A stretch of 63,999 nt of DNA, counting the filler, from Hausera hauseri (Eukaryota), in NCBI GenBank assembly GCA_046269625.1. It is 13 parts of 13 records of this genome, joined end to end, with 100 filler letters (N's around TTAATTAATTAA, not from the genome) between each part and the next. Parts side by side here need not be neighbours in the genome. Positions count along the whole stretch, not along the records: positions 29,935 to 34,295 come from JBJURY010617665.1; 12 more parts are not named here. One strand, 5' to 3'. Every line of letters starts with the position of its first letter. Position 1 is the stretch's first letter. The notes under the pieces are model-generated. The model did no database searches, was not told the DNA's origin, and worked only from the letters and a program-made list of their open reading frames with translations. This document shows positions 1-58,900 of the stretch, one piece after another. A program made the translations under genes and the position numbers.

Positions 1-1509
1 ATTTTGTTTATACATGATGATGAAATATACAAATACATTGGATTGTCTGGTGCGATATATACTGAATCACCATACTTGTGTTTTGAATCATTTTTCCAAA
101 CACATCTTAGCAGAGGTAGTCGTTCTGAACCGACTGTAGTGACTATTTAACAGCTGTAGTGCCTAAATCACTATTACAACCAAATATGCAATATACTTTG
201 CATGGAACATTTTCGACATATCTTGACACATTCTTTACTTTTCCAATTCCATAATTTATCTGAATATTAATGACCTTTGATTCCCCGATTTCTGGTTTGA
301 CTGCTATTTGAAAAACGGCTTAAAAATACTAAACAGCGATGAATTTAAAAACGATAATTAAGATATACATTATTTTAAAAAAGAAATTATTCCTATATCT
401 GTAGTGTTAGGAATAAACATTCGGCCGTGGTCAAAATTGTTGTAGATTGCAGTTTATATAAATTGTGACACTGGACGGCCGCCGGGGCTTTATGTACAGG
501 AGCCTGATCTCGCATTTTTATTGTTGCTGCATATTTTATTTAAAATGCACGATAATACAAAATAAAAAGTTAGTCTTTCTGATTGAAATATAGATATTTT
601 TCTGCGTTATAAATGAAATTTTCTTCTGCGTATTCCTATCGAGATAATGGCGAAAATATTACTTTATTGTGTTTAACATATTGCACGAGGACAGATTTAT
701 CAAATTATGTTGGGACATTGTTGGTGCATTGGAATTCTACAAACGACAATTCCGTATACCAACAAAAGGCGGTTACAAATTTACTACATGATTTTGTAAG
801 TAATTATTTTACAGGAGCAGTGACAAATATACCGCAGAACATACGAAACCACAATTGGTGTCAGAAGTGGGATGTTCTATCCATGTTAAAACGACAGTAT
901 TTAGTAAATTCATAATTGTAAATCCAAATAGCAGTAACAAAACAGATTTAACGAAGTTAACAATTTATTTCTGTAATTCAAAATTCAAAACAAAATGTTC
1001 TATCCCTAATCTATATTTTATTGACCGTATTTGCAATGGCATATATCTATGTATTTTGAGGAAATTACCATGAATAGCAAAACACCAGATCGAGGCTATA
1101 TGCCGAGTTTGCGATAAATATTTTCATTTCGGCATAATATCTATTTATTCGGTATATATTTTTGTTTTGGCAGAACGATGTATTTTCGAATATCGTCAGA
1201 TAGACATTTCCTGACATTACGGTAAACTTCGTATAGGGAGTTCCGAGCCGACAAAATGAAACACCAAAACACACTGATTCGTAGGCGAAATAAACAAAAA
1301 ACAAAAAAATAAGTGGTATTAACGAAATTGTATTTACAGTTAAATCAACGACCAAAAAAATGAAATAAAACGAAAGCATGATGACGTTGTACACAACACA
1401 AGCCTTTTCCGAATTATCAAAGTGTACACCGCTAGTTTCGAATGTGACATGTCCTGATAGCAAATTGCAAATTTTCACAGTAATGAGCGATTTAGTACTC
1501 GTCAACACC

Positions 1510-3230: not shown

Positions 3231-4477
3231 TTTTTTTGAACGTTTTGGAGAAAAGGAAGAGTAGAGGAAAATGAGATTTATCGTTGTAATATTTACAACC
3301 AGGCACACATGATCTAGCGCGTGACTGAAACTTATTGTGAGAGACGCAATTGGGGTTGTCACAGCGTACCGTTCGCTGTAGAACCGACAATCCAAAAAAC
3401 ATTTCCGAGCATCCCTTCGAAATCGCGTGTGATAAAAGCAAGTCATGCGTCCGCCAGGTGAAATGGATCGAGCAGTGTCTGGAAATGCTTCTCTCCATTG
3501 AAGGTCTGGTTTCACTTCGTCGAGGCCCATTAAGATTATTTAGTTGGGTAGTAATGGCCAAAATCGATTTCTGTAACTCGCCAAACTGTTGCTGCATCAT
3601 TTGCAATTGTTGTGAAAATGAAGTGTCATCTGTGTGTGAAGGTGTGAGCAGTTGCTTCAGCTACTGGTTGCGAACTATTAGATTGTAAAATGTCAAAACT
3701 TTTGTCTGCCAATAAGGCGAGCTTTTCAAGGGCCGTTGAGTCGTCTACTACAGTGAGCAGCGCTCTGATGGAGGTTGGCAAGGATGAAAGAAAATACCGA
3801 AGAAGAAGATCGGCATTGTTTATGGAAGTGACGTCTAAGGAACTCAGTTGAGATATTGCAGTTTTAAGGAAGTCCGATGACTTTTGATTTCCTATGGCAT
3901 GTTCATTAAAGTATTTCTGAATTATGCTGTCAATGGAAGGGCCGGTAATGTGCAGAAGTGATTCATAAAGCATATCATATGGATTTGAAGAGGTTAATAT
4001 GTCGGCCAGATTATTGATTTGTTGCTTGGCATTAGCTGGAAGTAGTAGCAGCAAACTGTTCGCCCGCAAGAAGGAATCTGTGATATGATTAGCCTTAAGC
4101 CATTGCAAATTGAATTGTAACCAGGTACGACTCGAATTCATCTTGTCGAGAAAAAAATCTGTGTAAGGGAGATTTGGAGATGTAGTCGGTGTGGGGTCGG
4201 CAGGACGACGACCAGATCTGGTCTTAGTGGGGTTTTCCACATAAGAAGGATCGGGGTCCAATCCACCCCGTAGACGAAAGTGAAGAGTGAGGTGGATAAT
4301 TTTGGAGAATGCAGAAAGTTGGTCATGAGCACTGAGTATAGAACCATGATATGGAAGATAAAAGTCTGACAAGTTGAGGAGAGAAGATAGATGTGTGGGA
4401 AGGTGATGAGAGGTATAAGTGTGTGGCACATAGAAGGTATAGAGGTGTGTATTATTGATGAAGATAAATAGGGAAAA
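3227..4477 (-). pseudogene. gag: UBL-Gag (ubiquitin-like domain + capsid-like region + two CHCC motifs), copy A
   Basis: ORF 3626..4582 has HLTLHFRLRGG followed by gypsy Gag-like sequence (GNQKSSDFL, FLSSLP, LADK); CFYH..C..C motifs lie in downstream frames. Confidence 0.85.
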
Positions 4478-5118
4478 GGGACGCGGTGCAGCGGGGGCGG
4501 TAACGCTCGATTTTTCACCAAAATCATTGATAGCTGTCTTGATCCGGACTATCATAGCTCTGAGATGACATAAGGCACTCATGTGAACTACCAGCGTCGT
4601 TAAGCATTATAAATGATGAAATGCCGATACGTAAATTTTTATCATAATTATCTTTTGATAAAGGTGACTGGGGCAATCCTATTTGGGGTTTTTGCTTAAA
4701 CAAAACTGATCACACTGATCCTTGAACAGTATTGACAATTTGTTTTTTATGGTCCATAGTAGTTAAGAAAGATGCGGTTTCTGAAGTCGATAACACCGTG
4801 GCAGGCGTGTCAAATGACTTTGATATTGACGGACCGAGAGGGAAAGAATTTGGAGCACCAGTACATTGAAGTGGTTGTTGAGCAGATGGTGATGTTGAGA
4901 AACGCATCGAATAATTGTTTGTGGATAGATTTTGGTAGGGTAGAAGCAAGCTCATTTCCCAGATTTTTATATTCATTCCGTAAGTGTCAATGATCGCCGA
5001 ATGGACATTTAAACGGGAAAGATCTAGCCGAATCTAGATAATATTTTGTAACGATGACAAATGCTCCGTTAATCTGTACGTTGATCTCCGTAGGAAACAC
5101 TTCTTTCTCTTTTACGTG

Positions 5119-21718: not shown

Positions 21719-22795
21719 TTATCGACGTTGACGACGTCGAAAATGTAACGTCAAATGTGTCGTTGACCGAAACAGAAATTTAATGGGTTCCCAAAATTCA
21801 TCAAGCATATACATGGAAATACTGTGCACAATATTGTGAGACAATGATAAGTACACGGGTCTGAACATATTAACGCGAACAGTTTCACCCGATGTTTTGT
21901 ACGTGTCAGAATCCACGTCAATAGAAGCCAGTAGATTTTTACGTTCTCCACCAACGAGTACGGATTTGGTTAAGTCCGTTAAAATGTTGATGCGGTCAAT
22001 TGCTCCATAGAGTTGTGGTTTGTATTTTGCAACAATAGATCGTCCAACAATGTTTTTATAAAATTCACGTTTTGGAAAACCGCGATTCCGAGCCAATAAT
22101 TCACCAAAGGCAAAATACGTAACATTGTCATGGACTGTAATCGAAATGTGACCATTTGCGTTTATTTCACATGTTTTTACGGCTAATGTAGTTGTTTTTT
22201 TGACGTATTCAGACAATGCCAGTTTCATTTCCATTAGTAAATCGTGTGGTATAATGTATGAGCGGAAGACTGATTTTGACTTAGTCCATTTTACTATAAT
22301 ATCGGATTCCTCGTTGGACGAAAGGTCCAATTTTTCAACAATTATAACATGTCCACCTAGCCGTAGACGTTTTGAGTGTACACTGACTGATTGGAAACCC
22401 CATACCTGAGCATCAGCTAAAAGAATTAAACTGCATTTCAATTGGATTTCGATGCATTAGTTTCATACGGTAATTTGAAAAATAAGCATAAACCTAGAAA
22501 TTTTCTCGCGAATATTTGTGAATAATATATCGGTTATAGGAACGGATTGTCCGCAAACGACTTGAAATAAGGTTTGTTTTTTGTCGGGTAAAGTAAATAC
22601 CACTGTTCTGAGGTATTGTCATTGGCGAAAATGTAAATGTGAATTCTGTCAAAGCCACTTTTCAATCTCTGTGGCGTAAATCGACCGGTTGGTTCAAGTG
22701 TATGGTAAACTGTTTAGCGATATTGTCATTGTCGTCATGTTGTGATAATGATCTCTTACTATCAAGTACCAAGTAAATGCTGCTGATGCTGCTCT
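21719..22795 (-). pseudogene. Polinton minor capsid (penton-like) paralog 1 with large insert
   Basis: SSIYLVLDS...N.AKQFTIHLNQPVDL..VALTEFTF; C-terminal INILTDLTKSVLVGG..NLLASI, RPVYLSL, LTLHFRR. Confidence 0.78.
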
Positions 22796-23830
22796 TTGAA
22801 TCTGTGATGCAAAAATCCAACTTGTTGCATTGTGTCCGTGCCACTTGACGAGATATTGTTTATTCGAACCTTTGCCACGTGAACGTAGAATTTTCTGAAT
22901 ACAATACACACCGAGTTTCTCGGGCAGTACCTGAAGTTCCTGTTTGTAGAATTTACCCGGTATTTTCTCACCGTTTTTAACCTATAAAACGTACATGACA
23001 AGTGTTTGTTTTGTGTTGATTGTCGAAATGCAGAAAACCTCGTCGCTTCAGTTCTGATTGAAATTCTTAATGAATTTCGCAGTACTTATTTTCAAAATAC
23101 GTACGCAAGCACCGATTTTATTTTTTGGGCGTTTAATTGCCTGTGTTCTGTTTTGATAAAGCCACATGTCCAAATAATCAACTGGCCGTAATCCATTGAT
23201 GCTACGGTGTGTCGAATGATTGTATGCATGAATAATATCCGGCCGTACATCTACCCAGCATTTTTTGCCTTTCTTCGTAAAGTATTTGTTTGGGCGACCG
23301 CGCAATGTTCGATTAAATCGTTCAACGAGTGCAGCCTTGAATCGGGAAAACACAGAGCAGTGGTTTACACCGAGCCGTTTCAAGACCGTTGCAACGTGGC
23401 CGTTGTAGAATTTTTTACCCAAATCTGTTTGTAAATGCTTCGGCCGTTGTTGTTGTTGTTGTATCAGTGCCTGAACAGCGTCGTCAATCTCTTTACCGGA
23501 TTTAGGTTTCACAATAATTGCACGAGCAAAACGACTAAACACATCAACGCATGTCAGCACGTACCGATACCCATTGTTGATGCTGGCGTAAGGAATCATT
23601 TCCATCAGATCCATTTGTCATACATTATTTACATCGGCAGCACGATATGCACGAGTTGGAAACCGCCTTTCTTATCGGTTTGTTTAGGCTGTATGCTAAC
23701 TGTTTCCTGAGGTAACGTTGGGTCTGTTGCCGTGTCTGTTTGATAGTCTTTGCCAGTTTGTCGAAGCCAGTATACCCGACGGGATGATGCTGATCGAGCC
23801 ATACGTCACCAATCGTTGTCGTCGATGATT
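22790..23830 (-). pseudogene. Polinton retroviral-like integrase with C-terminal chromodomain
   Basis: MDLMEM..YASINNGYRYVLTCVDVFSRFA, LQTDLGKKF, KAALVERFNRTL, YNHSTHRSI; QYLVKWHG...SW chromodomain. Confidence 0.9.
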
Positions 23831-23956
23831 CGGGTGTGCTTGTATTACAACAATTAGAACAAAACGTGAATGAAAGACTCGGTAAACTGAAACAGAAAGA
23901 TTAAAACCATGCACCCATATCGCTAAATCATCATATACTTACCTCCATTGTTTATA

Positions 23957-29934: not shown

Positions 29935-30410
29935 AAAAAATCTCAATTAGGAAAATATCACATTCTCACAACTCTACAAAAAAGAACGTGCTACATAAAA
30001 TTAACGGAGTCTTGGGGGTTTGGTGCATTACAATCATATTACCCGACTTTTCTTTAAAAATATTTTTTTAAAGAAAAATATTGTTTTATCGTTGTTTTAA
30101 TAATCGAAAAAAACGCAGTTTTCTTCACTTTTTACAACAGACGGACATATTTATTTGATGCTTTATTATTGTACGAATATACATTATTCAGTGCTTGTTT
30201 TATCAAGAAATTTATGTTTGAGATCATGCCAATTTTATTTTTCAACGACCTGCCAAGATCCCATGCAAGGATTTATGTTTTTCTTATGTTACATGTTAAC
30301 GTTTTTGATTTAGCAACTAATATTCTTACTTCCAAAAAGAATCAGCTTACCCCTGTTGAGATTAAACAAAAATTGCTAACCTCGATAAACTCGAATATGA
30401 TTAAATTTTC

Positions 30411-30585
30411 TATGATGAATGATACTACTGCAAATGTTAATTTGATGGGAAATGATACAAAGAATGGCGAATTGCAAATTGACGATATGATGAATTATAC
30501 GACTACAAATGTTTGTTTAATGGGAGACGATATGATGAATGATGAATTGAAAATTGATGACATGATGAATAACGTTACGACAACT
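30411..30585 (+). repeat. 75-bp tandem repeat, about 2.3 copies
   Basis: Translates with a 25-aa period: MMNDTTANVNLMGNDTKNGELQIDD / MMNYTTTNVCLMGDDMMNDELKIDD / MMNN. Confidence 0.7.
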
Positions 30586-31459
30586 TGAGATACTAGAAAT
30601 ACCGATACAATAAAAGCAAACAACAATACCAATAATACAATAAATAAAAAAATAAATGGTGTCAGAAATAAATCCACTAAAGGCACCATAAAAGACACCA
30701 CAAATGGTGTCAGATGCCTTAGTACTTTCAACCACAGTCCGGTCCAACGTTCCGATTTCGTGAATACAGAAAGCAAACGACGACTCAAGGATCAATTTTC
30801 GGAGGGTTGCGCATGCCGCGGCCAACACGCAAACCACAGGTTGGTGAGTTTGATTTAAGGTTTAAACCCATCCTACGACTCCAATTTTTATAATGAAAGT
30901 AAACACGGGTAAAAACAAAAAACAGAATCAAACTGATCATGGTGTTGAATAAAACAATTTAACGTATGCTATACTGCGAATTTCTTACGATATTATTGAT
31001 ACAAATTTGAATTTACCCTATTCAAAATGTAGTAGTAATCACAAAATAACAATGAACGTTAATTCCTTCTGTAATTCTTATATGTATAAATCCTATAGCA
31101 GTCTGCTTTAAATATCTAATGAAATATTTTTCATGAGTGGGTAAATCAGAACAATGTAGATAACTATTACAAGGTACCACCTAATACAGCAACGAGAAAT
31201 ACTATCCATATTGATTGCTTCCATAAGGTCATAAAACAGAATAATTTTCCAATAGAATTCGATCACCATCAAACTGGAAAACGCAATGACACAAATTGTT
31301 ATTTATTTGTAACCGTACCGTCTGATTCTTTTTACAGTCTTTCGAAATATAAGGTGTGGTTAATTAAACATCCACGACTCCCTAAATTTATTGACACATG
31401 CAGAGCATCCAAAGAGTTTGCGATGAACCTGGATGTGTCTGTGATCCGTGCGCCACAAC

Positions 31460-34295
31460 ATGCCTCCAGCATTACTTTTCAACCCCTTTCCTTTTTTGTT
31501 TTCAAAAATAACACACATATTTCTACCATACTCACTCGTAACACGGACATTTCTTACACCCTCTATATGTCTCTATCCTCTTTCCTACACACTTCCGACT
31601 TTTATTTATCGCACCATGGTTCTGTGCTACATCCGTCTGACTCACTTTCTTTCTTCGCTTCTCCGATCATTCATCTCACCCTTCACTTTCACCTCCGAGG
31701 TGGTTCAAACCCTGATCCTTCTACTGAAAGTTCCTCCAAAACAAGATCCGGTCGTCGTCCTGCTAACTCTGCACAACCTATCTCTCCCAATCTTCCTTGC
31801 ACAGAGTTCTTCCTCGATAAAACTAATTCAAGCCGCACTTGGCTACAATTTCATTTACAATGGATAAAAGCCAATCATATTACGGATTCTTTCTTGCGCG
31901 CCAACAGCTTGTTACTTCTTCTCCCAGCTAACATCAGGCATCAAATTAATAATCTTACTGATATCCTTACTTCGCCCACACTATAAGACATGCTTTTTGA
32001 GTCTGTCCTTCATATTACCGATCCATCGATTGATAATATAATACAGAAGTACTTTAACAAACACGCTATAAGCAACCAAAAACCTTCTGACTTTCTGCAG
32101 ACCTCTGTTTCATACCTAAGTGCTCTTGGCGTTACTCCCACCAACAATGCGGACTTAATTCGTCGTTATTTCCTTTCCTCCTTACCCACTTCCATCAGAG
32201 CTCTCCTTACTGTCGTTGACGACTCGACGGCGATTGAAAAACTTGCCCTATTGGCTGATAAAAGTTTCGAAATCTTGCAAACTAACAACTCACAACCCGT
32301 AGCTGCAGCAACCACGCATACCTCATCTCACGTAGACACGACTGTTTTCGCACAGCAACTACAATTAATGCAGAAACAATACGATACTCTACAGCATTCA
32401 ATCTCCGTTATCACGGCTCAACTAAGTAATTTGTCTACGTCTCGGCGAGGCGAGATTCGTTCAACGCGTGAGCGTAGCCTCTCCAGGCATTTATTTTGTT
32501 CCAAATCTCCTAGCGGACGAATGATTTGTTTTCATCACGAGAAATTTCGTAGAAATGCAGAAAAATGTCTTTTGGATTGTAGATATTATGACGAGCGATT
32601 CGTGGTGGACAGCCCTATCTGCATTTACCATACAAAATTCCACTCCCTAGCCAGATCGCGCGTTCAGGGATGTAAACATTACAAAAGCAACTCCAGTTTT
32701 TCTTCGCCTTCTTCTCCTCCTCCTTCTGCCTACCAGTCATCATCTTTCCCTTCACAATCTTCAAAAAAACTAAAAAGGCCTCCAGATGTTACGGCACATT
32801 CTGGCATAGGCAATACTGCTCAGTCTTCTGGCCGTTTTAACACCGCCTCCGCAGTTTTTCTGTTAAAAGCTACACTGTTCTCTAGCAATGCTCCACATAT
32901 CGATTTTCTCATCGACTCAGGAGCTGCATTTTTACTCCTCCCTTTGTTCTTCGTCCCTACATCAACGGCAGTTTCTTCGCCTCCGCTTTTCACCTCCAGC
33001 AGTCAACCTTTGCAAATCGCAGGTACCACGGAACTGGTTTTTACATTCTCAAACTTACCAGAAAAGTTTGTCTGGAAATTCCACGTGGCTAACATTAAAT
33101 CGCCAATAATCGGCTCAGACTTTTGGGCTGCACACGACCTGCTAGTTGACTGCAAGTACGGTTGTTTGCTACGTAGAGACTCCGTCGTGAACGTTAACAA
33201 CTGTCTAACAGGCAGCGCAACAGACCAATCGACTGCGAACTCACACGTGAATTTGGCAAATTGTTCATCGGTTGATAACGACACCTTTAGTAGTTTATCT
33301 ATTTCCTCAATTACACCTCATACACCGAAGTTGATTTTAAAACAATCGGTTAAACTAAATGTTGACAACGGCAGCGTCGTTCGTCCTTCGCCAATCACAG
33401 TCACTGCTTCCTCTGATAATACGCCTTATTCATTTTTATCACTACATTCCAATCTCAAATCCTACGTCAATTCTTCTTGTCCTCGCATACTAAGAAAAGA
33501 CCCCAGCTTTAAGCCCCTGTCAACACCTTATCACCACATAGACACCTAACACCAAAGACCTATCAGACAAAAGGTGAGACCATTATCGCCCCGTAGACGA
33601 AAAGCCGTAGAATTAGAGTTTAACGAACTCAAAAAATCTGGTATCACTCGAAGGCCCAAATCACTATGGGCTTCACCATTACATGTAGTGGCAAAAAAGG
33701 ACTGTACTTTTCGACCATGTGGCGATTATCGTCTAGTAAACAATCTAACCATCATGGATGCTCACCCATTACTGCTCATAAAAGACATCCTTCAAGTCAT
33801 AACAACACCAATACCTATTCCACAATAAATCTGCACAAAGCTTACCATCAAATCCCCGTTGCAACCGATGACGTTCCAAAGACTGCTGTCATCACTCCAT
33901 TTGGCCTTTACGAATACATGTTTATGCCATTCGATTTACGTAACTCAGCCCAAACTTTCCAACGCCACATCGACACCGTTCTCTCAGGCCTTGATGTTGC
34001 TCATTCTTACATCGATGACATATTACTTGCCTCCAAATCCTTGAAACAACACCATGAACACCTCCGAATTATTTTTCACAGACTACATCATAATAACTTA
34101 CAAGTTAATTTCTCCAAGTGCAATTTTTTTCAGAAACGTGTCAATTTCTTAGGCCACATTATCAATCCTCACGGCCACTCTCCACAACCTGATCGACTAC
34201 AGCAATTAAAAAACGTAGCATTTCCAACGACGACTACAAATATGAGAAGTTTTTTCGGCACACTACATTTTGTCCATAAATGCATACCGCATTGC
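31460..34295 (+). mobile_element. Ty3/gypsy CHCC-Gag family, copy B (UBL-Gag, protease, RT); runs off the contig
   Basis: HLTLHFHLRGG-Gag, two CHCC motifs, FLIDSGAA, RPCGDYR, SYIDDI; close paralog of copy A. Confidence 0.93.
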
Positions 34296-34395: not shown

Positions 34396-35260
34396 GCCAG
34401 TAGTTATTTACGTTCTCCACCAACGAGTACGGATTCGGTTAAGTCCGTTAAAATGTTGATTCTATGAAATGCTTCAGAGTTTTGGTTTGTATTTGGCAAC
34501 AATAGATCGTCCAACAATGGTTTGATTGAATTTGCGTTTTGAAAAACCCATATTCCGGGCCTATAATTCATCAAAGGCAAAATATGTAACTTTGTCATGT
34601 AGTGTAAGCGAAATATGACCATCTGCGTTTATTTCACATGTGTTTATGGCTATTGCGGCCGTTTTCTTGATGTATTCACACAATTCCAGTTCCGTTCCGA
34701 TTAATAAATCGTATGGTATAATATATGACCGGAAGACTGATTCTGACTTAGTCCACTTTACTATAATATCGGATTTTGCATTGGACAAAAGGTCCAATTT
34801 TTCACCAATTATAACATGTCCACCTAGCCATAGACGTTTTGAGTGTACATTGACCGATTGAAAACCCCATGCCTGAGCGTCAGCTATAGAATTAAACTGC
34901 ATTTCAGTGGGATTTCGATGCATTAGTTTCATACGGTAGATTGAAAAATAAGCATAAACCGAGAAATGTTGTAGCGAATAATTGCGAAGAGTACATGGGT
35001 TATTGTGTCGGATTGTCCGCAAACGACTTGAAATAGGGCACATTTCTTGTCGGGTAAAGTAAATACAACTGTTCTGACGTATTGTCATTGGTGAAAATGT
35101 AAATGTTAATTCCGTCAAAGCCACTTCCCAGGCTCCCTGATGTAAATTGGCCGGTTGGTTTAAGTGCACGGTAAACTGTTTAGCGGTATTGTAATTGTCG
35201 TCATGTTGTGATAATGATCTGTTACTATCAAGTACCAAGTAAATGGTGCTGCTGCTCATA
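34396..35260 (-). pseudogene. Polinton minor capsid paralog 1, second copy
   Basis: MSSSTIYLVLDSN...WEVALTELTF...INILTDLTESVLVGG; alignable by eye to 21940-22795. Confidence 0.8.
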
Positions 35261-35261
35261 G

Positions 35262-36300
35262 AATTTGTGATGCCAAAATTCAACTCGGTGCAGTATATCC
35301 GAGCCACTTGACGAAATATTGTTTATTCGAACCTTTGTCACGTGAACGTAGAATTTCCTGAATACGATATACATCGGGTTTCTCGGGCAGTACTTGCAGT
35401 TCCTGTTCGTGGAATTTACTGCGTATTTCCTCGCCGTTTTCATCCTCTAAAACAAACATGACAGGTGTTTGTTTTGTGTTGATTGCCGAAATGCGGAAAA
35501 CCTCGTCGCTACAGTTCTTATTGAAATTCTTAATGAATGGCGTCGTACTTATTTTTGAAATATGTACTTGAGCACCAATTTTATAATTTGAACATTTAAT
35601 TGCCTGTCGTTGTGTTCGGTGTTGATAAAGCCACATATCGAAATCATCGATTGCGTCAACCGGCCGTAATCTATTGATGCCACGATGTGTCAAATGATTG
35701 TATGCATGAATATTATCCGGCAGTACATCTACCCGGATTTTGTCGCCTCGCTTCGTAGGGAACTTGTTTAGGCGACCGCGCAATGTTCAATTAAGTTGTT
35801 CAACGAGTTCAGCCTTGTATTGGGAAAACACCGAGTAGTGGTTTACTCCGAAAGGTTTCAAGGCCGCTGCAACGTAGGCGTTGTAGAATTCCTTATCCAA
35901 ATCCGTTTGTAAATACTTTAACTGTTGTTGTTGTATCAGTGTCTGGATCGTGTAGGCAATCTCTTTACCGGATTTAGATTTTACGGCAAATGCACGTGCA
36001 AAACAACTAAACAGAACGATACATGTCAACACGCACCGATACTCATCGTTGATGCTGGCGTACGGAATCATTTACATTAGATCCATTCGCCATACGTTAT
36101 TTACATCTGCAGAACGGTATGCACGAGTTGGAAACTCCCTTCATATTGGCTCGTTTAGGCTGTATGCTAATTGTTTATCGAGGCAACGTTGGGTCTCTTG
36201 TCGAGTCTGTTTCACAGTCCTTGTCAGATTGTTGACGCCAATATAACCGACGGGATGACGCTGGTCGAACTACACGTCGCCTATTGTTGACGTCGATGAT
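35262..36300 (-). pseudogene. Polinton integrase + chromodomain, second copy
   Basis: LTCIVLFSCFA, LQTDLDKEF, KAELVEQLN, FHEQELQ, YFVKWLGY; homologous to 22790-23830. Confidence 0.88.
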
Positions 36301-36603
36301 GTGGTTTTTGTTATCATTACAGAAATCTAGAAAATGCGTCATTCTGCAGCTTCATCTAAATAAAAATAAAAATAAAATACAACCTTTCCTCACATTATTT
36401 GTTTATAATCGTGTTACATGCATATAAATAGCTATATTATAAACACTGTTTCCATAATGTTAGCTAATATCAACTATCGCGGATATGTTACCGAGTGTGA
36501 CATTAACACACTAAATTTTAATCAATGAAAGCCGAGGCAGTATGTCCTCAAGTGTCCACCGCATTTTTCATGCATTATATTTCAATCGGGAAAGTGTCGT
36601 ATT

Positions 36604-37140
36604 ATGGGTTGCCGAAAACCAATCATAACTGATAATCTACTACCATTCGGAATTGTCATTGGCCAAATTCAATCAATAACGGTGACGACTCAGTTAGACT
36701 ACCAAACAATTAATCTGTATAAATTATCAATGGCCACTGAATGTACGAATGAACCTGAACTGTCTCCTGAACTGAGATTTACATCGTTTCGCCCACTTTG
36801 TGTCAATGTGTTTAGCAGTGGAAAAACTGTTGCACTCGGTATTCGGACAGTGGACTATAAACCTATTATTGATCAAATTGAAAACCACATAAATATTTTA
36901 GTGAATCAAAATAATGTAAATTGCACAACAAACTGTAAATACCATTCCCATGGTTGTTCAGACATTACTTCCAAGGAAGACGACGATAAAACGATTCTAC
37001 TCAATGATGCTAATGGTGAAAGTTCCGATTGGTCGTGGTTGTTTGGCTACAAAAAGGACGATTTTAATGCCAAACTGCTGGAAACGAAAACAGGACCTGT
37101 CCAACAATTAGAAAAACCTTCTAATGGCGATTGTCTGTAG
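36604..37140 (+). CDS. Unknown Polinton-associated protein
   Basis: 178-aa ORF divergent from the integrase/capsid block, downstream of an A/T-rich TATAAAT intergenic stretch. Confidence 0.4.
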   Translation: MGCRKPIITDNLLPFGIVIGQIQSITVTTQLDYQTINLYKLSMATECTNEPELSPELRFTSFRPLCVNVFSSGKTVALGIRTVDYKPIIDQIENHINILVNQNNVNCTTNCKYHSHGCSDITSKEDDDKTILLNDANGESSDWSWLFGYKKDDFNAKLLETKTGPVQQLEKPSNGDCL

Positions 37141-45180: not shown

Positions 45181-45905
45181 CACTGTATTGTAAAAAAACT
45201 TTTGTTTAAATATGGTAAAAAAATAAATACAAAAATAATTGCATTTGAATTTTGATTTAAAAAGTTTTCTGTTTGCCATATTGAAAATTTTTGTTTGGAT
45301 GATTTTTGATTGATGGATATAATTCAGAATTGCAATATGTGGTGTGAGAGTCAAGATTATTGTTCCAAATGTTGGATGAACATTTGTTCACAATTGAAAC
45401 TAACAGAAATTTTATCGGTTTTACCTACATTTCCAATCGGATGATTAATTCAAAATTGAATTACAAATTCTACACGTTGTTCTTACGACCGGTGAAACTT
45501 TACAAATTAAAATTAGACGGTATCGATTATGATGTGTTTCTTGCCGAAAAAAAGATTGTTTTGTTGGGACCGGAAGTGTTAATTTCCGTGAATTATTTAA
45601 ATTGTAAATCAACGACAAGCTTGTTTCTGCCAACTGACAATTTGCATATGGTTTCGTTTCATGAGTTGGATAAAATTAACAAATCAAATTGGCTGTCGAA
45701 TTTTTTCCCGAGGAGTACCATTGATATTCAGGAAGGTATTTACGTTACGTTTATTCGCTACAGTTATCTGTGTTTTAAAATGAGTTTTTTTCACTTCTGT
45801 CAATTCATGTTAGATCGTAAAATTTCACGGGATGACGTACCGCATTATTTCCTAGCCTTTAATATTGTTAATGAAGGATTCATTAGTTTTCAACCTTTCC
45901 TTGTT

Positions 45906-46283
45906 GATGTTGCTTGTTCTCAATCACCCACTATGCATCGCCATCGACGGAATTATTTGTGTGTAACGTTAAGACAATTGTGCCAAATAATAACCGACGA
46001 GCCCGATTTGCTTGGTCCGAAATCATTTCTTGTTCTTTGGGCGCTCTCATATACTACAGGTAAAGTTCATTGGTTGCTCAGATATTCGGAAAACGTTCCA
46101 CCAAAGAAAGGCCCTGTTATTAATTTAAATTCTAAAATTAAGGTTGGCGAATTTTCCGATGCTTTGTTACCGGAACTTTTCTTTTACATCGAAGAAATTC
46201 GTCGACTAATGTTGAGATTTTGGCAAGCAGTTGAGATATTTTACATTCAAATGTTGTCGGAATACGATGCAACGGATTTGAAC
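45906..46283 (+). pseudogene. NCKAP1: Nck-associated protein 1 (Nap1/Hem) fragment
   Basis: MHRHRRNYL..TLRQL..I.TDEPDLLGPK...WLLR...D.LLPELFFYIEE.R...YIQMLSEYDATDLN. Confidence 0.82.
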
Positions 46284-46742
46284 GAAGATGACTTATTCTC
46301 TGATATTAGCCCTGTTAAACGAGATCCGGCACATTTAGCCCATTTGGATCGCTTGTTGGAAAGTTGCTAGCCGCGCAGTAAATGTCTAAGTGACTGTCGT
46401 AGTCTGATTGTCATGGACCCCTGTATGAATATAATATGCAGTAGATGACACAGTTCCAAATGCTCTTATCTCAGGATCATTTGCAATTGCAGGATTTTCT
46501 AAATACGGTTGCAAATACGTCTTGGTTGCGAAAGAGCAAACACAAAGGCAAACGGGTCAATCATGAAAGTCCCGTCAAGTATTCACGCATAATTGAAGTT
46601 TCATCTGCTATGACGGAAAGGAAAGAAAAGTCTATCCGCAAGAAGAGTACATATAAAGAAATTGATGGTTTATCATTGAAAATTAGTAATCCGCATAAGA
46701 GTCGAAATAAAAAGAAATATCGTGAAAAGATCGACAAAATTC

Positions 46743-46842: not shown

Positions 46843-48649
46843 AGGTGTTGACGATGAGTAGGTGTAACTTTTTATAATGTCGGATTGTCGGAGAAGAAAT
46901 CCATTAAAACTAAGGCGAAAATTAGCAAGAGTTGTTTGTCGTTGTAGCATGTCGGATAATTTTGCAATTGTTGCTAATTTGTGAATGTAGTAGGTTTGTG
47001 TGTAATTATTATCGAGCAAAAGGATAAGTAAGGTAAAGTTGCCAGATATGTCGGGTGTGTAAGGTGGCGCGTACGATACGGCGCACCCAAATTCCCTGCG
47101 TTGTAGTAACTGGTGTGGACGTCTGGTGATTCGTTATTTTCAATAGGGGCATGATACGTTGTACCATATTTAGTAATTTCGGGATATTCTGGTGGCATTT
47201 TAAGCATCAGATAAGATAACTCACCAGTGTAATTCTGTTCCGAAAGATCCGCGGTAAATTCTAACCATGCTTATTTAGTTTTGTCTTTTCTTTTGTTACT
47301 AGCTTGCGTTAGGTTGATGTTCTCGGTATCACTGTTTGACTTTCATTAACAGTTGAGTACCGCTGCACTTCGTTTTGCCCGACTGCTGTGTGACATTTGT
47401 CGAGAGAGTTGTTTGACTTGACGGAGATTGCAGAACATTCATCAGCAGACGAATATACAGAAAGGATATTTTGAGAGGAAAATTTTGTGAAAATTTGCAA
47501 TTTTACTCTGGAAAAAGTTTCGTCATCATTAATAACGCTAATAAAACTAGGTTCAACTGGATATACTTTTTTCTGACTTTTGCACGAATTGTCATAGGAC
47601 ATAACAGAAGATTTGATAAATCTGACGACATAGACCACGATGATAGATTAAGTTGTGCGACTCTAAAAGAAAACGGTACGAGTTTGGCCTCACGGTTTTC
47701 GTATGAACATTTTCCAGTGGCAGTTACAATTGTTGCATGACGCGTGTCTGATTTGATGAAGCTTTCGATTGCCTCATTTAAAATGTCGTATCTCTACATT
47801 TTTTAATAATTTTATAGCTTCGGTTTTCTCTTCTCCATCGATTTCTATGAAGATCTTACACGGCATTTTGCAAAGATCAAACTGCATCTGTTGAATAAGG
47901 GATTTAAAAACACGTAGATTGTTTTGTTGTTTTGATCTCTTTCAGAAAAGTATATCGGTTACAACTTCCAACTTCTACATCATCGGGAGCACGTTGGCAA
48001 GGATATGTTGTTTTGCCATCTCAACTTGCAGTGACAATTATTCAAATAGTTATAATCACATTGGAAAACCTGAGTGTCTTTTTTTGGTCACAATCTGAAA
48101 TTTGATTGCACTTTGATTCCAAACAACATTTGATTTCTTTCTAAGAAATATCAACTTTCTTTTTACACTCATTTGATTCCAATATGTAGTATGTCGTTAT
48201 TACCGTTAATAAATCGCATACTTCGACTACTTTAGGACCACAACATTTGCATATTTGCCATTCTATATGTTTCTTGGGTACACATTTACAATCTGCTATG
48301 TCATATTCTTTATATGTAATCGATTTTTTTAGAGAACCATCACTAACATCTTGACAATTCGATTCAACTGGCAGCTCTATCGGACATATGACGGCTTCAT
48401 GAGCAACTCTTTCTGTCTTCTAACACTTGTAATCAATCATAGAATCTGTATAGTACATTGTCTTGGTCTGATTATTATCGCACACAGATACCTTGTCAGG
48501 TACCGTGCAAGTACAATGACAGGTAACATTCTTTGTTTCTTCTTTACAGTCGCATCCATCTCGAATATTTCTTACGTAGGTCAACGTATACAATCCGTAT
48601 TCATAGTTGGGTTGGCATCCCGAATCACTGATGAGTTTTCAATCGGAAA

Positions 48650-55907: not shown

Positions 55908-58900
55908 CAAGGCAACAGTTGCAGATTTGTCTAGTGAACTAACTCACCGAATTAACTTAAAATACTTTATACTACGCATAAACGGATATCATCTACATTA
56001 TTCTGATTTAGTATCATTCTTTTTATTCTCATTTTCATCACTAATAATTACTTTAAGTCCCCGCCTATTCGGTGGTTCCGACACCAAATCATCACTAAAC
56101 GATTCTGAGGAACTCACCGATATTCCCACCATACACATTCCTATGAAACAGTTTTCCTTGCAGCATTCTCGTTAGTCAATTTCTGCGTTGACTATTTTAC
56201 TGATAAACAGCATTCCAGGCGTACATGGCTGGAATTCCATGCACAGTGGCTAAAATCCAAAATCACCGACCCTTTCTTCAAGGCAAACAGCCTATTAATC
56301 CTTTCACCAACCGGTCTTAAATCACTGTTCCCAAACCTTTTAGAAATTTTTCAAACCGCAAACCCATACAAAACACTCTTTAATGCCGTTTTATAACTTA
56401 CCGAGCCCTCTCTCGATAACATTATCCAAAAATATTTCAACGACAATTCAATAGGAAATCAAAAACCCTCTGAATTTTTGCAAACATCTTTGACCCAATT
56501 AAGCAAGTTAGGAGTAAACCAGACAAACAATGCCGATTTATTGCGTAGATATTTCCTTCAATCGTTGCCGAAATAAATACGCGCCTAACTAACCGTTGTT
56601 GAAGGCACCGCTACGCTAAAAAAACTACCACAGCTGGCTGATAAAAGCTACGAAATATTACATACACACAATGCTCCAATCGTTGCAGCCACATTACAAC
56701 CGTCTATGACACCACCCAGTGCAGAAATCTTAGCGTTAAATAACAAAATGAACGCTCTCCGGGCTGAAAGCACTGCAATACACAAAGCCATTTCTGCTTT
56801 AACTTCTAAACTAGACAATTTATCCATGTCGCGACGAGATTGATTTACAATTAATCGTAGCCGTGCTTTATAGCACAATTAGAGATCCGCCAGGCCCCCT
56901 ACTCGACCTATGGTGTGCTATTATCACACTAAATTTAAAAACCAATCTAACAAATGTTGCTTGACGTGCAAATTCTTTACACCCACTTTTCAAAAATGTG
57001 ACACTGTTTGTATCTACCACGATATATTCAGCAATAAAGCCTGAAACTGCATCAACGGTTGCACGTTTTCGAATCGATCTAACAAATTCCTTTGTAATTC
57101 TTCCGACTCCCCAAATCTTTCCATCCAAAAAAACTGACAAAGCCGCCATATGTTCCGGCGCATACTGGCAAAGGCTACCGTCGTCATTGTAACAGCTGCA
57201 CGAATGCTGTCTTTACATTAAGTGCCTTCATTTCTACCAAGCCAAATCAGTTAATCAATTTTTTAATAGATTCTGGAGCAGCAGTGTCCCTTCTACTTAT
57301 GTCTCCCAAAATATCAATTACCTCACCGACTTCAACTAAACTGTACACAGCAAACGGCCAAGCTTTACATGTATTCGGCACGGTTAAGGTTTCATTCACA
57401 TTACCACCATTCTCCGACATTTTCAATTGGACTTTCATTGTCACCGACACACAATCCCCAATACTTGGCTCTGATTTCCTATCTTTCTACAACCTCTTTG
57501 TAGATTGTAGACAACATCGAATCATTAAAAGCAGTTCAACAAAGCCAATTTCTACAAGTAACCCTCCATCGGTCACGCAGCCTATCTCGCCTATAAAATC
57601 TATATTAAATGAACCATCAGCCAACGCGAATAAAAACCTTAATACTAATATAATTAATCCAACGTTTTCGTTTAAGTCCGATAATAAAGGAACAAAAAAC
57701 GTTGACAAGGACAATTCAGGCGACCCGATTTCTGCCGTTTCTCACACTAAATCCAATTAGTCCACCACAATAACAACAACAGCCTTTACTACGCTTAGCC
57801 AAAAAGTGCAACAATATTTAACCCAGTCTTGTGTCCATACAATAAAAAAGATCCAGCATTTCGACCGGCTGACACAACGCTCCATCACGTAATCACAGAA
57901 AATTCTAGGCCCGTTAGGCAAAAACTCCACTCACTTCCACCACGCCGTCGACAGGCAGTCCAAGCGGAATTCTCTGCACTTGAGTAAGCTGGATAATAAA
58001 ACGCTCAAAATCACCACTCGACATCGTCCAAAAAAAGATGGTACATTCCGTTCATGCGGCGATTATCGCCAACTTAATAACGTCACTGCCATGGATGCTT
58101 ATCCTTTACCTTTGATTAAAGATATATTACATTCCTTACACAAGACAACAATCTATTCGACCATAGACCTCGAAAAAGCCTACAACCAAATACCGGTATC
58201 ACTCGAAGACATTTAAAAAAACGGCCATGATAACACCTTTTGGTCTCTTTGAATATCCATTCATGCCTTTCGGTTTAAAGAACTCAGCACAAACTTTTCA
58301 ACGACATATTGATTCAGCCCTTTCAGGCTAGTTATTTGCATATCCGTACATTGATGACATACTAATCGCATCGACATCACCCAAACAACACGAAGAACAT
58401 CTCAGACTAGTTTTCCAACGCTTACACAACTACAATTTGCAAGTGAACTTTTCTAAGTGTTCCTTCTTTCGGGAAAAAGTGAATTTTCTTGGCTATGTCA
58501 TCACACCTGATGGTCACAATCTACAGCCTGATAGAATTCATCAGTTACGAAACATCGAGATACAAAAAACCACTACTGACATGCGTAGTTTCCTTGGGAC
58601 TTTACATTTTGTTTATAAATACATCCCACACTTTAGCCATTTAACTGCTTCTTTCGCTGAGTTAGGAGCAGGGCCTAAAATAAACTTATATATTGGACAC
58701 GTGAACTTGTAAACCAGTTTGCCGAACTCCGCTATAAACTTAAAACAGTTGAAATCTTAGCTTACCCAAAATCTGATGCCGACCTTATTTTGACAAGTGA
58801 TGCATCAACCAGAGCAGTAGGAGGGGTTCTTCACCAAAAATCTCAAGGTACAAATGAGAAATTACAATTCTTTTCACGTAAGCTCCAGCCACAAGAACGC

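Follow-up and report, generated by a model that had tools for sequence, protein, structure and literature searches.

In the yeast retrotransposon Ty1, the 5' LTR contains the start of the Gag frame, which extends across the primer site. In the host fusion protein FUBI-eS30, a diverged ubiquitin-like domain (UBL) can be cut. Polyubiquitin, Ub-eL40, and Ub-eS31 are UBL-GG precursors that are cut co-translationally by deubiquitinases, and according to the available text of the same source, these enzymes cut linear fusions with any next residue except proline (PMC3692480). Captured ubiquitin is also found in cytopathogenic pestiviruses (BVDV CP1, CP Rit), where cellular hydrolases cut after its GG; as described in the accessible part of PMC8310069, such insertions yield an authentic N terminus, can have extra residues upstream, and do not need Met1.

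Among mobile elements, a ubiquitin/SUMO-like motif is present in the gypsy polyprotein of the planarian giant elements Burro/GYPSM1 (available portion of PMC6431247), and Ginger transposons carry OTU/Ulp1 proteases (available portion of PMC2836005). The CsRn1 clade (CsRn1, PwRn1, and AgCR) is recognized by the CHCC Gag signature Cx2Hx9Cx3C (PMC2582038, in the part available). The locus described here has a UBL that ends in a diglycine and is followed, in frame, by a retrotransposon Gag.

UBL-Gag copies in the window

The window (the whole stretch of Hausera hauseri DNA that was analyzed, 63,999 nucleotides with filler included) consists of 13 contigs of ~4 to 7 kb each; the N spacers between them contain an all-frame stop word, so contigs that are adjacent here are not linked. 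It contains UBL copies A to D, with the following features.

31486..31704 (+), copy B UBL (beta-grasp), ending in LRGG; from translation, codon alignment, profile, and fold models
31699..31704 (+), copy B diglycine, the putative cleavage point, with Ser as the next residue; G74 and G75 invariant in 39 rows
31705..31791 (+), copy B linker of 29 residues, rich in Ser, Pro, and Thr, with low pLDDT in the AlphaFold model
31792..32400 (+), copy B capsid of the FFLD subtype, probably DUF7041-related; a stop at 31984-31986 breaks the frame
32527..32673 (+), copy B, two CHCC motifs (Cx2Hx9Cx3C), the second imperfect
32780..34295 (+), copy B decayed pol, with a protease region and reverse transcriptase (RVT_1, 7.6e-25), truncated by the contig end
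31123..31485 (+), copy B stop-free stretch in the Gag frame, a candidate leader, unalignable with copy A
31423..31425 (+), copy B in-frame ATG in weak context, 21 codons before the UBL
30657..30714 (+), two words resembling a tRNA-Leu primer site (11 and 10 nt), a candidate primer site of copy B
30058..30855 (+), repetitive frame rich in Asp, Met, and Asn, in Gag phase, with one stop at 30586
4262..4483 (-), copy A UBL, ending in LRGG, in frame with Gag, on a separate contig from copy B
55909..56076 (+), copy C UBL, the third and more diverged, ending in RLFGG, with its front lost at the contig edge (E 0.0015)
46843..47037 (-), copy D UBL, of the same family; the contig end precedes any GG or Gag (E 3.9e-7)

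The 73 residues encoded at 31486-31704 (LSFFVFKNNTH...IIHLTLHFHLRGG) run on without a frame change into SNPDPS and then the capsid, in agreement with the UBL-GG-Gag architecture that the initial annotation had assigned to copy B. Copy B is a decayed member of the family. A reverse transcriptase lies downstream of copy A, as of copy B (Pfam matches), and the UBL of copy C precedes a decayed Gag. Copies A, B, and C each have two CHCC motifs (Cx2Hx9Cx3C), some of them decayed. Copies C and D were detected with a UBL profile from which the sequences of the window had been excluded. In the three window copies with a Gag, as in the loci of relatives, the UBL is contiguous with Gag in the raw DNA. 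Contigs of two sequencing runs, 83 to 90% identical, also span the UBL and the capsid, which means that further copies exist; their depth is not a copy number, and these contigs do not give the edge of the element.

The UBLs of copies A and B align over 72 codons with 57% identity (pN 0.286, pS 0.633). As the initial annotation had noted, the N-terminal half is strongly diverged (42% identity, 15 of 36 codons, compared to 72%, 26 of 36, in the C-terminal half), and the conserved motifs carry synonymous changes; third-position mismatches predominate in the codon alignment. LRGG is encoded, as quoted there, by CTC CGA GGT GGT at 31693 in copy B and by CTA CGG GGT GGA at 4273 (-) in copy A. The purifying selection postulated from these changes is borne out by a UBL dN/dS of 0.26 over the 72 codons, a value not near 1; the pN/pS ratio between the two copies is 0.45 for the UBL (bootstrap 95% interval, 0.32 to 0.63) versus 0.13 for the capsid. 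Similarity between copies A and B ends at the start of the UBL, and the upstream DNA is not shared.

Single-sequence searches with the UBL alone gave no Pfam or PDB match. In the ESM Atlas, copy A reached ubiquitin-family clusters at 0.89 to 0.91, below three unnamed clusters at 0.92. A 23-row profile that excluded the members matching Pfam ubiquitin still aligns to ubiquitin residues 2-76. The AlphaFold model has the order strand-strand-helix-strand-strand-strand, with pLDDT of 84 to 94 over residues 1-70, and the topology remains unchanged when members matching Pfam ubiquitin are excluded. The best Foldseek matches are ISG15 and ubiquitin (TM by target, 0.75 to 0.78), and VIA-align gives a Z of 9.4 and an rmsd of 2.1, with 73 residues aligned. 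On these models, the copy B domain is a beta-grasp ubiquitin fold. Two features of a type I UBL precursor are present, namely, the beta-grasp fold and a diglycine right after the last strand, with a residue other than proline next. At the sequence level, the copy B UBL is 22% identical to that of L015, a related locus with near-native ubiquitin, and on a reading of the alignment it has no equivalents of ubiquitin Ile44, Val70, and Arg72.

The window also contains animal genes (GPCR, Nckap1, and C2H2). A 127-residue Nckap1 match at 45348-46370 (+) lies in one open frame with unrelated flanks and may represent a retrocopied fragment. Segments 21927-23859 and 34396-36332 form an 84% identical pair without a Pfam match; their frames presumably recall the capsid genes of Polinton/Maverick elements. 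A TBP-like frame at 36529-37137 (+; Pfam, 4.4e-9) adjoins the repeat at 34396-36332 and is perhaps element-borne.

Distribution among Gag proteins and position in the element

Family counts are based on phmmer searches against 50%-identity representatives, with the best 150 of 155 matches used. Among these listed matches, the count of diglycine tails was restricted to Gags with at least 35 residues upstream of the capsid; of these, 34 of 37 FFLD-type proteins, versus 5 of 27 other Gags, have an [LIVA]xGG pattern no more than 60 residues ahead of the capsid. One of these five (P0071) is an FFLD-type protein missed by the pattern, and another (P0042) is without a UBL score. The other three (P0058, P0074, and P0085) are real UBL-GG fusions in classical Gags of the LPPYW type, and their placement in a separate clade suggests a second UBL capture. 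FFLD Gags labeled as having no tail mostly begin downstream of the expected GG and so were not counted as absences, whereas P0046, P0059, and P0092, with 42 to 61 residues upstream and no GG, may be true UBL-less relatives. Judging from this sequence distribution, UBL-GG before the capsid is a trait of a clade and not a one-off, as the initial annotation had proposed in calling it a family trait. The only invariant positions in the 39-row alignment are G74, G75, and one capsid Trp.

The capsids of the window have no Pfam match; 21 of 30 scanned homologs match PF23055 at E ≤ 0.01, most of them below the cut-off. In a 79-row tree (quick search only), the FFLD group falls outside the 99-supported branch of classical members. 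The order reverse transcriptase-RNase H-integrase follows gag in all five relative pol frames scanned, none of which contains a deubiquitinase family. Where CsRn1 has a tRNA-Trp primer site, a tRNA-Leu site is found in all 12 loci with an upstream site. The element is a Ty3/gypsy LTR retrotransposon that appears related to the CsRn1 clade but differs from it in this primer site. Among viral contigs, no relative was found (0 of 55 pattern matches).

The position of the UBL relative to the LTR and primer site was examined in relatives. The 36-row alignment is too diverse for a DNA scan, so only subgroup A5, which is sister to the window's own subgroup, was collected. Metagenome contigs were scanned with capsid DNA patterns, without gene calls, and the 159 matches yielded 22 loci on 22 contigs of four assemblies; all LTR and leader data come from these. 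The primer site TGGTGTCAGAAG, complementary to the 3' end of tRNA-Leu (as given in a supplement row of PMC13524379), is found 357 to 722 nt upstream of the GG in 12 of the 22 loci, which places the UBL inside the element, as the initial annotation had supposed; this position is that of the related loci and not of the window's own copies. Seven of these 12 loci also have a polypurine tract that defines an LTR of 303 to 685 nt. Terminal repeats in four contigs and a 4965-nt tandem in one put the whole element at ~5 kb. In that contig (L005:1-8349), units repeat head to tail every 4965 nt with a single LTR between them, which represents either a tandem copy or a collapsed assembly.

These data bear on the possibility that the UBL is only a passenger, acquired by insertion beside a host ubiquitin gene, or an artefact of joins made by gene callers. 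Several database proteins do carry unrelated host domains spliced in front. For the UBL, however, such an origin is extremely improbable: it is contiguous with Gag in raw DNA, is under selection, and lies downstream of the primer site in the 12 loci, and its junction with the capsid is bridged by the other contigs of 83 to 90% identity. Selection, the primer site position, and the 34 of 37 diglycine tails among the matches listed rule this reading out.

In the window itself, a perfect 18-nt tRNA-Leu primer site is located at 856-873 (+), on the strand opposite to copy A and facing its pol. Behind this site, there is no long frame and no UBL match.

The open leader and the residues around the diglycine

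The arrangement is likely to reflect capture of a UBL-GG in front of Gag, with host deubiquitinases cutting after the GG and thereby freeing Gag from a disposable leader. In the 12 loci with a primer site, the DNA between this site and the UBL is 69 to 80% AT, so that each frame would be expected to contain 3.5 to 15 stops; in 10 of the loci, the leader has no stop in Gag phase. Summed over all 12 loci, the leaders contain 18 stops in the Gag frame, 60 in +1, and 122 in +2. Of the two exceptions, L017 is open in +1, and L020 is disrupted. Ten of the 12 loci also lack Gag-frame stops over the final 150 nt of the LTR. A promoter-like TTGTTT..AT motif, defined by eye on the same loci in which it was counted, is present in 11 of the 12, at 144 to 399 nt ahead of the primer site. 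In 10 of these 11, the first ATG at least 25 nt past the motif opens a Gag-phase frame that extends to the GG, giving leaders of 77 to 247 residues. In 10 of 12 loci, an open Gag frame thus extends from an ATG in the 5' LTR, via the primer site and the AT-rich leader, as far as the UBL.

Under the proposed processing route, the Gag frame would open at this LTR ATG and would be read, free of stops as in the relatives, through the primer site and leader into the UBL. The LTR ATG is presumably the first after the cap and the real start, in which case ribosomes would have to traverse cis-acting RNA, and the product would begin with a poorly conserved, hydrophobic-biased leader peptide of the same 77 to 247 residues. 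The leader pN/pS is 0.60, 1.08, and 1.01 in three distant pairs of loci and 0.37 in the close pair L001/L009 (6 synonymous and 9 replacement changes), where the UBL value is 0.50. Across pairs, the UBL ranges from 0.36 to 0.67 (0.67 in L001/L006), and the capsid plus nucleocapsid ranges from 0.11 to 0.25 in four pairs. Leader length varies two- to threefold, and tandem repeats are present. Such a pattern is expected from selection against stops and hardly on the sequence, and the leader appears to be weakly constrained, not fully neutral. Tandem repeats in LTRs or leaders are seen at L006:67-255, L006:472-637, L008:2315-2488, and L010:1306-1473; those lying within the open frame keep it open.

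Residues around the diglycine were compared in 56 tails (39 proteins, 14 loci, and 3 window copies, with some near-duplicates). At tail position 73, 55 of them have Leu, Ile, or Val; Arg occupies position 72 in 42 and position 74 in 20. The GG is followed by Ser in 26 tails, Asn in 7, Met in 6, and Gly, Ala, or Thr in 4 each; small residues account for 45 of 56 (37% expected), and bulky or basic ones account for 2 of 56 (22% expected). Proline is never found there (0 of 56, versus 10.6% in the linker), a count that offers support and not a clean test, since the tails are related and are not independent trials. The putative cleavage signal is kept in its fold, Gly-Gly, ubiquitin positions 72-73, and lack of a following proline, in elements whose scanned pol frames encode no deubiquitinase. 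Host enzymes would cut after the GG, as in polyubiquitin and ubiquitin-ribosomal fusions, Gag would receive a small N-terminal residue, and the leader-UBL would be disposed of after cleavage. Because most UBLs are far from ubiquitin, with Arg74 in only 20 of the 56 tails, it is uncertain whether a ubiquitin-specific protease would recognize them.

Five members carry near-native ubiquitin (Pfam E values of 5.5e-19 to 1.4e-24); the L015 UBL is identical to ubiquitin at 57 of 76 positions (75%). All five retain Lys48 in the alignment, and four of the five have lost Met1, which indicates that they are read from upstream. The UBL tree unites these UBLs in a single clade (100/99, with a long-branch warning), whereas the Gag tree interleaves their elements with those that have diverged UBLs, and grouping of the near-ubiquitin members, as defined by Pfam score, is rejected on that tree (AU test, P = 0.016). 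The disagreement between the trees implies that the UBL module has moved between elements, with template switching as the likely route. Since the near-ubiquitin Gags nest deep among relatives with diverged UBLs, the simplest reading of the sequences is a fresh capture of host ubiquitin. Worn UBLs would then be replaced by fresh host ubiquitin and swapped between elements, as the trees suggest.

It is quite unlikely that the GG is indeed cleaved while initiation takes place close to the UBL, at a non-AUG, internal, or spliced start, the open leader being otherwise caused. The region upstream of copy B is of interest here, with an ATG in frame 21 codons ahead of the UBL and, farther upstream, signals resembling splice sites; the lack of common upstream DNA in copies A and B and the failure of L017 and L020 to stay open in one frame would also fit. 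Against this, the absence of Gag-frame stops from 10 of 12 leaders and from the last 150 nt of the LTR needs translation in that frame, and a start near the UBL sits poorly with the loss of Met1 from four of the five near-ubiquitin copies. The initial annotation had drawn attention to another ATG, at 31460, as a possible ancestral start. This ATG is out of frame, as stated, but its role as an ancestral start was rejected because the frame of relatives opens 77 to 247 codons upstream, inside the LTR, and because of the same Met1 losses. The ATG at 31423 and the frame open to 31123 are absent from that annotation.

The stretch at 31123-31485 has no stops in the Gag frame, compared to 8 and 12 in the other frames. 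Further upstream, the primer-like words begin at 30657 and 30705 (3 matches in the window versus 0.14 expected). Fourteen stops from 30856 to 31122 separate these words from the Gag frame, and they therefore remain only a candidate primer site. The repetitive frame at 30058-30855 is possibly LTR/leader-derived; it includes a TTGTTT motif at 30092, and its stop at 30586 is absent from the contigs of 83 to 90% identity. The frame of copy A opens only 41 codons before its UBL.

Cleavage would also leave a free GG, and the freed leader-UBL-GG might serve the element as a selfish modifier of the ubiquitin type, becoming conjugated to host proteins, or as a decoy, or might bind E1, E3, or deubiquitinases, in each case blunting anti-transposon defense. 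Fast change of the UBL surface around a kept core, together with repeated replacement, would fit an arms race, and ISG15 is among the closest folds. Such a role is nevertheless unlikely: no surface is conserved, the invariant positions in the 39 rows being limited to the diglycine and one capsid Trp; Arg74 varies; the hydrophobic leader would remain attached; and the open leader is explained without a modifier. A broader scheme combines repeated capture of ubiquitin as a host-cut spacer (in at least two Gag lineages, with renewal in one), an LTR/leader that serves as a freely evolving peptide cassette, and a released leader-UBL-GG that acts as a modifier or decoy in host conflict; as a whole, it appears rather doubtful.

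Alternatively, the UBL could stay uncut and control Gag levels, as a degron or a handle for targeting to the proteasome, or else assist folding or assembly. Ubiquitin-like N-terminal fusions help expression, divergent surfaces may escape deubiquitinases, and Lys48 is kept in all five near-ubiquitin copies. An integral domain, however, needs no invariant GG, proline avoidance, or small next residue, and a variable leader of 77 to 247 residues on each capsid subunit is hard to accept, which makes this alternative improbable.

Comparison with known systems

No UBL-GG-Gag element was found in the literature outside Repbase/GyDB, subscription journals, and bioRxiv supplements, or in the available text of PMC7175516 and PMC9289625. 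A Gag expression strategy that combines an LTR start, read-through, and a host-made N terminus was not found described for LTR retrotransposons. If the processing of Gag after the GG by host deubiquitinases is true, replication of the element depends on a host enzyme class. The natural series of UBLs, from 75% to about 20% ubiquitin identity, would map what deubiquitinases need for recognition. The apparent lack of a Gag start codon would be explained as well, as gene callers truncate the protein or add host exons.

Ty1 differs from the elements described here in being of the copia type, in keeping the LTR-spanning stretch as part of mature Gag, and in having no UBL. Unlike the host ubiquitin fusions, the present UBL belongs to a mobile element and is internal, behind a long leader, with no sign of a usable ubiquitin supply.

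The CsRn1 clade, as far as it is covered in the available part of PMC2582038, shares with these elements the CHCC signature, the order PR-RT-RH-IN, and gag and pol frames that overlap, with a slippery site where gag ends (seen here in the relatives); the capsid is probably DUF7041-related as well. Unlike CsRn1, they have an N-terminal UBL-GG, a doubled CHCC motif, a capsid that starts with FFLD instead of LPxFW, a tRNA-Leu instead of a tRNA-Trp primer site, and a Gag frame that opens in the LTR.

In the use of captured host ubiquitin as a processing signal, the elements would resemble the pestivirus insertions, with putative cleavage in their case. According to the available text of PMC8310069, however, the pestivirus captures are sporadic, near-identical to ubiquitin, and located in the enzyme region of an RNA virus, whereas the retrotransposon UBL is fixed, old, strongly diverged, repeatedly renewed, and placed in front of the capsid. 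Ginger, in the portion of PMC2836005 available, is likewise a ubiquitin-system transposon but bears a protease, not a ubiquitin substrate. The Burro motif lies downstream of Gag among cargo domains of elements of 25 to 30 kb, with no processing role proposed in the available text of PMC6431247, whereas the UBL described here lies upstream of Gag in elements of 5 kb.
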